Shown one piece after another: positions 41,141-42,456 of a DNA stretch of 64,000 nucleotides. Position 1 is the stretch's first letter. Every line of letters begins with the position of its first letter. A program made the position numbers and the translations under genes. Under the pieces are notes generated by a model that saw only the letters and a list, made by a program, of their open reading frames with translations, was not told where the DNA came from and ran no database searches. Origin of the DNA: Eledone cirrhosa (lineage: Eukaryota). The DNA is taken from contig OZ024750.1 of the NCBI GenBank assembly GCA_964016885.1, forward strand, positions 11,532,001 through 11,596,000. The letters are read 5' to 3'.

Positions 41141-41402
41141 CTCCTTCTATAAAATAAATTTTTTTTACTCTGCCATGTATTGAGTACCTTACTTACTGTG
41201 GTTATCCCCGACTCAACCCGGGACCTACGTATATATATATATATATATATATATATATATATTGGAAAGTGAGGTTTTTTTTACAAAATGAAAAATAACC
41301 GAGGTGTCCTACACGAGTGAAAGTATAAAGAAAGAGAGATGAAATCGAAAATGCAAATGGAGTCTTATTTTTAAAAAAAATATATATATTTATTTGGTTC
41401 CT

Positions 41403-41711
41403 TGAACCATCCGAGGCGTTGGCTCCAACTTTATCACCACGGTAATTCCAACAAACTTCAAATATTCCACCAGTTCCTCGGTAACTGTGTACCAATAATC
41501 CACTCTGTACATTCCAGATGTGAACACATTTATCAAAGGATCCACTTGCTAAATATTTTCCATCTGGACTAAAAGCTACACTATAGACAGGCTCTTGATG
41601 CTTTGCTAGTGTGTGGATACAAGAACCTTGCTCAACATCCCATAACCGAACTGTTGAGTCAAAACTTGCACTAGCCAATATTAATGGGGAAGAATTAGAG
41701 TTGTTAGTGCC
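41403..41711 (-). pseudogene. TBL1XR1: Intronless fragment of TBL1X/TBL1XR1/ebi (C-terminal WD40 repeats, 103 codons)
   Basis: [72 protein letters not shown]. No flanking AG/GT splice sites; terminal VxVLDLRK is missing. Confidence 0.9.
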
Positions 41712-42456
41712 GAGGAACTGGTGGAATATTTGAAGTTTGTTGGAATTACCGTGGTGATAAAGTTGGGGCCAGCGCCTCGGATGGTTCAAGGAACCAAATA
41801 AATATATATATTTAAAAAAAAAATAAGACTCCAGTTGCATTTTCGATTTCATCTCTTTTTCTTTATATATATATAACGAAGGAAATGTGGTAAGGAACCA
41901 GGTGGACCATAACGCACCAAAGTACTCAAAACTTGAGGTAGTTAGCCGTCGAAACGGCTTGAGCTCAGCTGTCGGGGTCTTACTGGTTCCTATATATATA
42001 TATATATATATATGCAAAAGTTTTATTTAAGATTGTTGGGTTACAACGAGTAAATATTTTATAACTGATATAAAAGCACTCGACAGGAAGGCATAACATA
42101 TTTTTAATATGATATCCCAGAAATATATATAACGAAATAAATATGGTTTTATAAATATAGTTTCCATTTGTTTAATATCGTATATATATATATATATATA
42201 TATATGTGTGTGTGTGTGTGTGTGTGTGTGTATATGTATCCCGGATTCAATCGGAGGTAACTACAGTAAGGTACTCAATATATAGCAGAGTATACATATT
42301 TAGTATAGAAGTGGTTTCTACGGGACTTCAATATTCTAGGAACTCATCATGATTTCCTTCAAATATATTATATATATATATATATATATATATATATATA
42401 TATATATATATATATATATATATATAAGAACAAAAGATGGTTAAAAGAGTTCCATG

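Follow-up and report, generated by a model that had tools for sequence, protein, structure and literature searches.

A hairpin retrocopy of TBL1X/TBL1XR1 joined to a high-copy repeat at a predicted hammerhead cut site

In the stretch of 64,000 nucleotides that we analysed (the window), a unit lying between (TA)n tracts carries 103 stop-free codons on the minus strand at 41403-41711. A previous annotation of this DNA, made from its letters and here called the sequence-only reading, had assigned these codons to TBL1X, and the assignment was borne out. The translation matched human TBL1XR1 end to end (query residues 1-103 on residues 293-394 of a chain of 402, E 5.8e-81), with 8 residues of the chain left beyond the match and a net 3-nt insertion relative to the parent in the part encoded by 41671-41711 (103 query residues on 102 of the chain). 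It also agreed at 87 of 105 positions with a bat protein that carries the name TBL1X, and the matches of a 'longer' protein search were multi-repeat WD40 proteins only. The homology ended after SDGS and the next letters were AGGAACC, as described previously. Four full-length TBL1 proteins from fetched loci matched the 64-kb window at 41403-41788 and nowhere else, so the copy does not belong to a resident gene as one of its exons. The stretch 41403-41711 is a retrocopy of TBL1X/TBL1XR1, 5'-truncated and away from its parent.

The unit forms a long, near-perfect hairpin. Its two inverted arms, 41324-41481 and 41710-41867, are 158 nt each and 94% complementary with 228 nt between them, which agrees with the equal-length arms seen previously. 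Nine of the 158 positions are mismatched (four single changes and five inside an A/T run), and the perfect runs reach 57 and 41 bp. The left arm encodes GANASDGS and the right arm GASASDGS, as had also been noticed. The predicted fold of the unit had an energy of -312.5 kcal/mol, and none of 20 shuffles was as low. The extent proposed before, 41262-41867, held except for its start, which is 41263, since 41262 is the final letter of the TA tract. Both flanks are (TA)n as proposed, with the right tract being short (about 41862-41875). The target being (TA)n, the microsatellite hides any target-site duplication. All features are given in Table 1.

Table 1. Features of the hairpin unit and its flanks (positions in the window).
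Feature	Position	Strand	Basis
Left target flank, (TA)n tract	41230..41262	.	16.5 copies, 100% matches
61-nt tail, the 3' end of the high-copy repeat, on one arm only	41263..41323	-	Arm layout; ends of other copies
Left arm, repeat part, very high copy; begins directly past the predicted hammerhead cut	41324..41402	-	X1 depth; loose ends in X1, X5 and X14
Host/repeat join; 6-bp stem with 3-nt loop across the join	41397..41411	-	
TBL1X exon SGLL...SDGS, 102 nt	41403..41504	-	X14 record 14; X5 loose end
TBL1X exon ASFD...WNVQ, 166 nt, without either flanking intron	41505..41670	-	X5 record 29; fetched loci
Upstream exon, its 3' end, 5'-truncated	41671..41711	-	X4 loose end at 41689; TBL1XR1 match
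Inversion joint, 2-nt overlap (CC) of long copy and inverted arm	41710..41711	.	X4 loose end; X1 record 8
Inverted arm: 79 nt TBL1X (41710-41788) and 79 nt repeat, no tail	41710..41867	+	
Right target flank, short (TA)n	41868..41875	.	Letters

The contigs of four (X1, X4, X5 and X14) out of 24 sequencing runs were aligned to 41263-41905. X4 is an mRNA-type set from the source organism, X5 and X14 are sets from related organisms that we guess to be DNA-type, and X1 is possibly the source sample itself. One X4 contig of 2794 nt (record 23) ran unbroken over 41403-41674 with 4 differences, continued past 41403 into VFVLDLRK and a stop, and was taken as the parent mRNA. Record 29 of X5 aligned to 41505-41672 only, with 89 and 132 unaligned letters flanking it, and at 41506 a loose end of X5 was a pyrimidine-rich acceptor. 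Records 14 and 15 of X14 aligned to 41403-41506 and 41520-41674, respectively. Because the X5 and X14 contigs break at exon borders and the X4 contig does not, introns at 41504/41505 and 41670/41671 are missing from the copy. Fetched loci had introns at the same two sites. Among the records listed, both introns were read in X5 and X14, and neither is in the window. In these related organisms the parent does not encode this span as one exon, and the spliced host mRNA proposed by the sequence-only reading as the origin of the copy stands on the loss of two introns relative to these contigs. The 3' UTR and poly(A) tail that mark LINE-type processed pseudogenes were absent, and the repeat takes the place of the last exon and UTR. 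Two variants were seen in X1, A>T at 41511 (depth 6 of 19) and A>G at 41699 (in the sole X1 contig), and may reflect a polymorphic copy, an error in the window or a second copy.

The sequence-only reading had given vertebrate TBL1XR1 as having introns inside this span and another right after SDGS. Two inside the span were read in the parent of the related organisms, as above. For the third, a GT donor directly followed DG[ST] in 25 of 67 readable fetched loci (80 in total, 13 unreadable, many being transcripts). When the 15 sequence groups with both other introns were considered, 9 were readable and 8 of these 9 had an intron after DG[ST]. From these loci of other animals, an intron right after SDGS is likely in the source organism too.

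The sequence next to the TBL1X codons, which had been considered as a possible repeat (41262-41402), proved to be one at 41263-41402: it is foreign and of very high copy, with an X1 depth of 1e5-1e6 against 6-11 in the single-copy part, depth being no copy number. Relative to single-copy sequence, the depth of the repeat in X1 was far above that in X14 or X5. This may point to the repeat having recently expanded in the source organism, although depth is a poor measure of this. Other copies ended at 41265 beside TA-rich letters (70 X1 records among those listed), and copies without the tail ended at 41875 (range 41863-41875) before (TA)n (58 X1 records listed). As other copies stop at the same two points, the outer ends of the unit are the usual ends of the family. 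An exact 24-letter piece of the repeat had 0 matches in metagenome, prokaryote and viral contigs, and the donor sequence was absent from the supplements of PMC13282606, PMC8967140 and PMC8557442.

Upstream of the join, other copies continued with the same letters in X1, X5 and X14 (26, 1 and 2 records listed, respectively). These letters comprise a 4-bp hairpin followed by GAAACCGGTA. Hairpin and GAAACCGGTA together read by eye as the 3' half of a type I hammerhead motif, with stem II, GAAA, a palindromic stem III and a UH (GUA) cut triplet present in the donor repeat. The available part of the hammerhead (HHR) table of PMC8557442 has the same layout of core, palindromic stem III and cleavage site as GAAACCGGTA. 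The CUGAnGA half and the 5' strand of stem I were not read in the 19-30 upstream letters shown, and no CUGAnGA can be made out at the far end of the X1 consensus of 30 letters (agreement 0.79). Rfam gave no hammerhead at the gathering score in the window and none at E up to 5 in 36000-51000. Many family copies extend upstream past the predicted cut site. The fold joints of other copies fell within 41387-41403 in 10 of the 14 listed and at 41402-41403 in 3 of the 14, in a table that is blind to copies running further upstream, which are common.

Position 41403 corresponds to the first letter past the predicted cut, and in the parent mRNA it ends the SDGS codon. The join likely brings together the predicted hammerhead cut and the probable exon end, with one A (41403) shared between them. 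The same join is carried by the left arm and by the inverted arm 41710-41867. Of the earlier proposal that the host RNA was joined to foreign sequence at an exon boundary, the foreign partner is the high-copy repeat and the boundary is likely, as judged from the loci of other animals; the position of the join at the predicted cut site is the point that was missed. Across the join, the end of the host part and the start of the repeat form a stem of 6 bp. Such a stem was found at 0, 0 and 2 of the 283 other ends of the captured stretch (loops 3, 5 and 8) and at 234, 838 and 2628 of 189,883 control ends (loops up to 3, 5 and 8, or 0.12-1.4%), in a statistic that is post hoc. No X4 contig contained a chimeric host-repeat RNA, in a type of data where contigs drop rare forms. 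Splicing onto the repeat's own first AG was rejected, since two letters that are present here would be dropped.

The fold joint was checked in X1. Record 8 (41645-41739, depth 6.8) crosses both a lost-intron site and the fold joint, and reaches 29-30 letters past the joint (threshold 31), as expected of a contig ending at a repeat. X1 covered all 30 bins of the aligned span. Changes at 41334, 41357 and, by inference, 41419 were private to the left arm, and one at 41767 was private to the right arm. These single differences resolve against the family or the parent, so a fold-back artefact would not give them. The inversion is real and of a local kind. Divergence was about 1.3-1.5%; on the octopus scale in the available text of PMC13282606 (0.09 for 25 million years) the insertion would be roughly 4 million years old, if that scale applies. 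X5 and X14 gave no cover over 41703-41768, which hints that the insertion is confined to the source organism.

The unit shows marks of Penelope-type elements (PLEs): a head-to-head inverted 5'-truncated copy, a tail at one end, ends shared with its family and a (TA)n target. The available text of PMC8557442 gives an inverted 5'-truncated copy, a one-sided tail and a (TA)n preference as PLE marks, with a reported tail of 30-40 nt; the tail of this unit is longer, at 61 nt. The Penelope-type copying suggested by the sequence-only reading agrees with the layout and the (TA)n target. No Pfam match to RT or GIY-YIG was obtained in the 140 frames scanned of the 154 in the window.

The neighbouring elements had been described as ribozyme elements of the same layout. 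The tail-plus-inverted-arm layout was confirmed in four neighbours, with tails of 69, 83, 76 and 91 nt (nine regions were examined, and four others were tailless), and hammerhead-like cores were found, without any Rfam hammerhead. At least two other short repeat families have this layout (14265-14470, 37335-37770, 41047-41229 and 42420-42733), and their cores read CTGA(T/A)GA...GAAA, which is hammerhead-like and was missed by Rfam. Neighbours with the full core have the same build as the donor motif, and their folding energies were no better than those of shuffles. Their tails (69-91 nt) exceed the 30-40 nt reported for PLEs. At 37335-37687 there is a palindrome of 353 nt that is 99% complementary, with a 1-nt centre and a full hammerhead-like motif in each arm, and a loop so close to zero points to self-priming of the cDNA. 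At 7259-7698 and 41876-42180, repeat families of different kinds follow one another with a short (TA)n between each, as though TA tracts had repeatedly served as targets. Several more copies of the family at 41876-41992 lie in the window (7566, 10075, 23857 and 27273-27578). Overall, the repeats seem cephalopod-like in character. Isolated compact hammerhead-like motifs of other families lie at 37927-37954 (minus) and 50029-50056 (plus). Inverted repeats without a tail or TA flanks occur at 9142-9647 (arms of 160 nt, 186 apart) and 28565-28879 (109 nt, 97 apart). The open frames 4876-5406 and 25036-25491, both minus, presumably resemble a piece of a hAT-type transposase and the C-terminal nuclease region of a non-LTR element, respectively, and neither had a Pfam match at E 0.01.

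If transcribed, the hairpin would contain 79 bp of TBL1X sequence, and the sequence-only reading had proposed that it could yield siRNAs. X4, the sole mRNA-type contig set aligned, had no contig over 41703-41768, that is, over the fold joint, and its coding cover carries the parent letters. This part of the earlier interpretation was not upheld, and we regard an siRNA role as very improbable; its spliced origin, foreign repeat and PLE-type layout all stood. A 274-codon open frame runs over the unit (41202-42026, minus). Its two 140-nt non-coding flanks were stop-free in 168 and 174 of 1500 shuffles, and the changes in the copy hit conserved residues (T to A and S to N). A new protein from this frame was rejected on both counts, the stop-free flanks being within chance and conserved residues being altered. 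The copy is real, processed and recently inserted; it is probably inert and probably junk.

We are confident that the capture of a spliced host RNA and PLE-type copying, taken jointly, made this unit. How the two RNAs were joined can be said less firmly, and our preferred chain, in which a spliced RNA was ligated by an RtcB-type activity to a ribozyme-cut repeat RNA and then reverse-transcribed into (TA)n, is put forward tentatively, at somewhat less than an even chance. In this chain, the repeat RNA would cleave itself after GUA and leave a 5'-OH end. A host RNA ending at the last splice donor, or one letter short of it, would pair over 6 bp with the cut end, much as stem I of the ribozyme does, and would then be ligated. 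A Penelope-type enzyme would reverse-transcribe the chimera twice into the (TA)n tract, the two target ends priming at the two start sites of the element to give cDNAs of 449 and 158 nt, which would join via the 2-nt overlap.

Parts of this chain have precedents. According to the available text of the respective papers, hammerhead-cut retrozyme RNA is circularised by RtcB (PMC7229834), RtcB joins U6 to L1 RNA before retrotransposition (PMC6789731), and, when a purified PLE protein is used, extension of both target strands begins at two sites in the RNA, one on either side of the tail (PMC11167929). Ligation is favoured because it accounts for a cut end of full length, for pairing that resembles stem I and for the presence of the join in both arms. 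It fits the match to the exon end badly, since RtcB needs a 3' phosphate or cyclic phosphate and a splicing intermediate has neither. Also against it, the main template in vitro was uncut RNA and no reads ended at the cut in the part of PMC11167929 available. The absence of the CUGAnGA half from the letters shown, the copies that run past the cut, the lack of an X4 chimera, the 61-nt tail and the lack of an autonomous element in the window count against the chain as well.

It is also possible, and a serious alternative, that the two RNAs were joined by an end-to-end template jump. Here the RT would reach the 5' end left on the repeat RNA by the ribozyme, run off it and continue on a TBL1X splicing intermediate at its free 3' end, with the upstream exons joined and the last intron at step one, and one T would pair with the terminal A. 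The second arm would arise when the cDNA folds back at the CC/GG overlap, or when the jump is repeated. A jump of this kind explains three features at once, namely the cut site, the probable exon end and the one shared A, and it draws on the intron after DG[ST] in the 25 of 67 loci and the 8 of 9 groups given above; that intron is placed in the source organism by way of other animals' loci. A single base pair suffices for jumps by R2 and group II intron enzymes (PMC8594491, available text), self-priming has been proposed for PLE inverted repeats (PMC3846280, likewise), and the neighbouring palindrome with its 1-nt loop points the same way. However, if RNA primes both arms an identical jump is needed twice, and the jumps described are those of other enzymes, with no PLE case found in the available text of the literature searched.

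Exonisation is improbable. Here a variant copy of the repeat, lying within the last intron or further downstream, would have been joined by splicing to the last TBL1X donor, with a point change or A-to-I edit creating an AG right before AGGAACC and the element's enzyme copying the transcript. An exact exon end and a single covalent RNA for both arms would follow, and the repeat is abundant enough for an intronic copy. Yet in three organisms the family reads AA, not the required AG, ahead of the join, its upstream letters are rich in purines, and the family's own AG, two letters on, is unused; the normal last exon was the only one seen in X4, and both the cut-site match and the 6-bp pairing are left to chance. 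We give as little credence to a two-step origin at the DNA level, where a retrocopy or cDNA fragment was joined to the repeat by DNA repair and this master locus was transcribed and mobilised at a later time. Such an origin, too, predicts a single join shared by both arms, but the copy has no poly(A) or 3' UTR, cut site and exon end would both be met by chance, and the X1 depth of 11 over 41549-41636, less than twice that at the fold joint (6.8), leaves little room for other copies, as far as depth, which is no copy number, can tell. Fold-backs are a recognised assembly error, and record 8 falls just under the threshold past the joint in a set that may be the source sample itself, but such an artefact, or a DNA-level duplication of one parental exon with its flank, is barely credible given the two introns that split the parent in X5 and X14, the different continuation of the parent mRNA, the four single arm differences (three left, one right) and the full X1 cover.

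The value of the unit is as a mechanistic footprint that depends on the join and the predicted cut falling at the same place, in one dead fragment and a single example. Spliced sense host sequence at the predicted cut, in both arms, is a natural label of the template, and it argues for at least occasional use of the cut, sense RNA in vivo. The role of PLE hammerheads is called unclear in the available text of PMC8557442, and that of PMC11167929 has the cut not needed in vitro; its role in vivo becomes testable by genome-wide counts of such joins. PLEs are not known to mobilise spliced host RNAs; they are described as keeping introns when moving themselves or host genes, with an antisense template proposed as the reason (PMC3846280, available text). 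A broader proposal, speculative and doubtful as it stands, would be that the hammerhead-cut RNAs of PLE-dependent repeats act as 5'-OH acceptors for spliced host RNA ends in the germ line, as a general poly(A)-independent route to hairpin-born retrocopies. The copy would then be a fossil of cleavage in vivo, and both arms of PLE inverted repeats could come from one sense-strand template.

Several known systems resemble this unit. LINE-made processed pseudogenes with a twin-priming inversion share its intron loss, 5' truncation and short-overlap inversion joint. In contrast to them, the unit has no poly(A) or 3' UTR, and its inverted piece duplicates the 3' end and is not a separate 5' piece. 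PLE insertions, as far as they are described in the available text of PMC8557442 and PMC11167929, are alike in the head-to-head inverted arm, the tail at one end, the (TA)n target and a hammerhead-like motif near the 3' end; the unit differs from them in having no RT or GIY-YIG coding, a host mRNA as its cargo and a tail of 61 nt as opposed to 30-40 nt. The PLE-mobilised host genes of Adineta vaga, in the available account (PMC3846280), also involve host coding sequence moved in trans on element ends and an inverted end copy. However, the Adineta vaga gene kept all introns and lies between direct pLTRs, whereas the unit lost two introns, has no 5' element copy and is joined at a predicted ribozyme cut.

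The chimeric pseudogenes of U6 and LINE-1 made through RtcB ligation (available text of PMC6789731) are similar in that a cellular RNA at the 5' side and a retroelement RNA at the 3' side were joined end-to-end and copied. Here the 5' partner is a piece of mRNA for which no cyclic phosphate is known, the element's own ribozyme would supply the 5'-OH, there is no poly(A) and an inverted duplicate is present. Animal non-LTR retrozymes, which the available texts (PMC7229834; bioRxiv 10.64898/2026.07.22.740005) propose to ride on PLEs, are likewise short non-coding repeats with a type I hammerhead-like motif; they are tandem monomers of 170-400 nt with circular RNA, whereas the donor is known here as dispersed fold-back copies. 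No report of spliced-mRNA capture at a PLE-type ribozyme cut was found in the open-access literature. PLE capture of host genes with introns kept between pLTRs and end-to-end LINE-1 chimeras are known, and what this unit adds to them is a spliced mRNA joined at a predicted cut.
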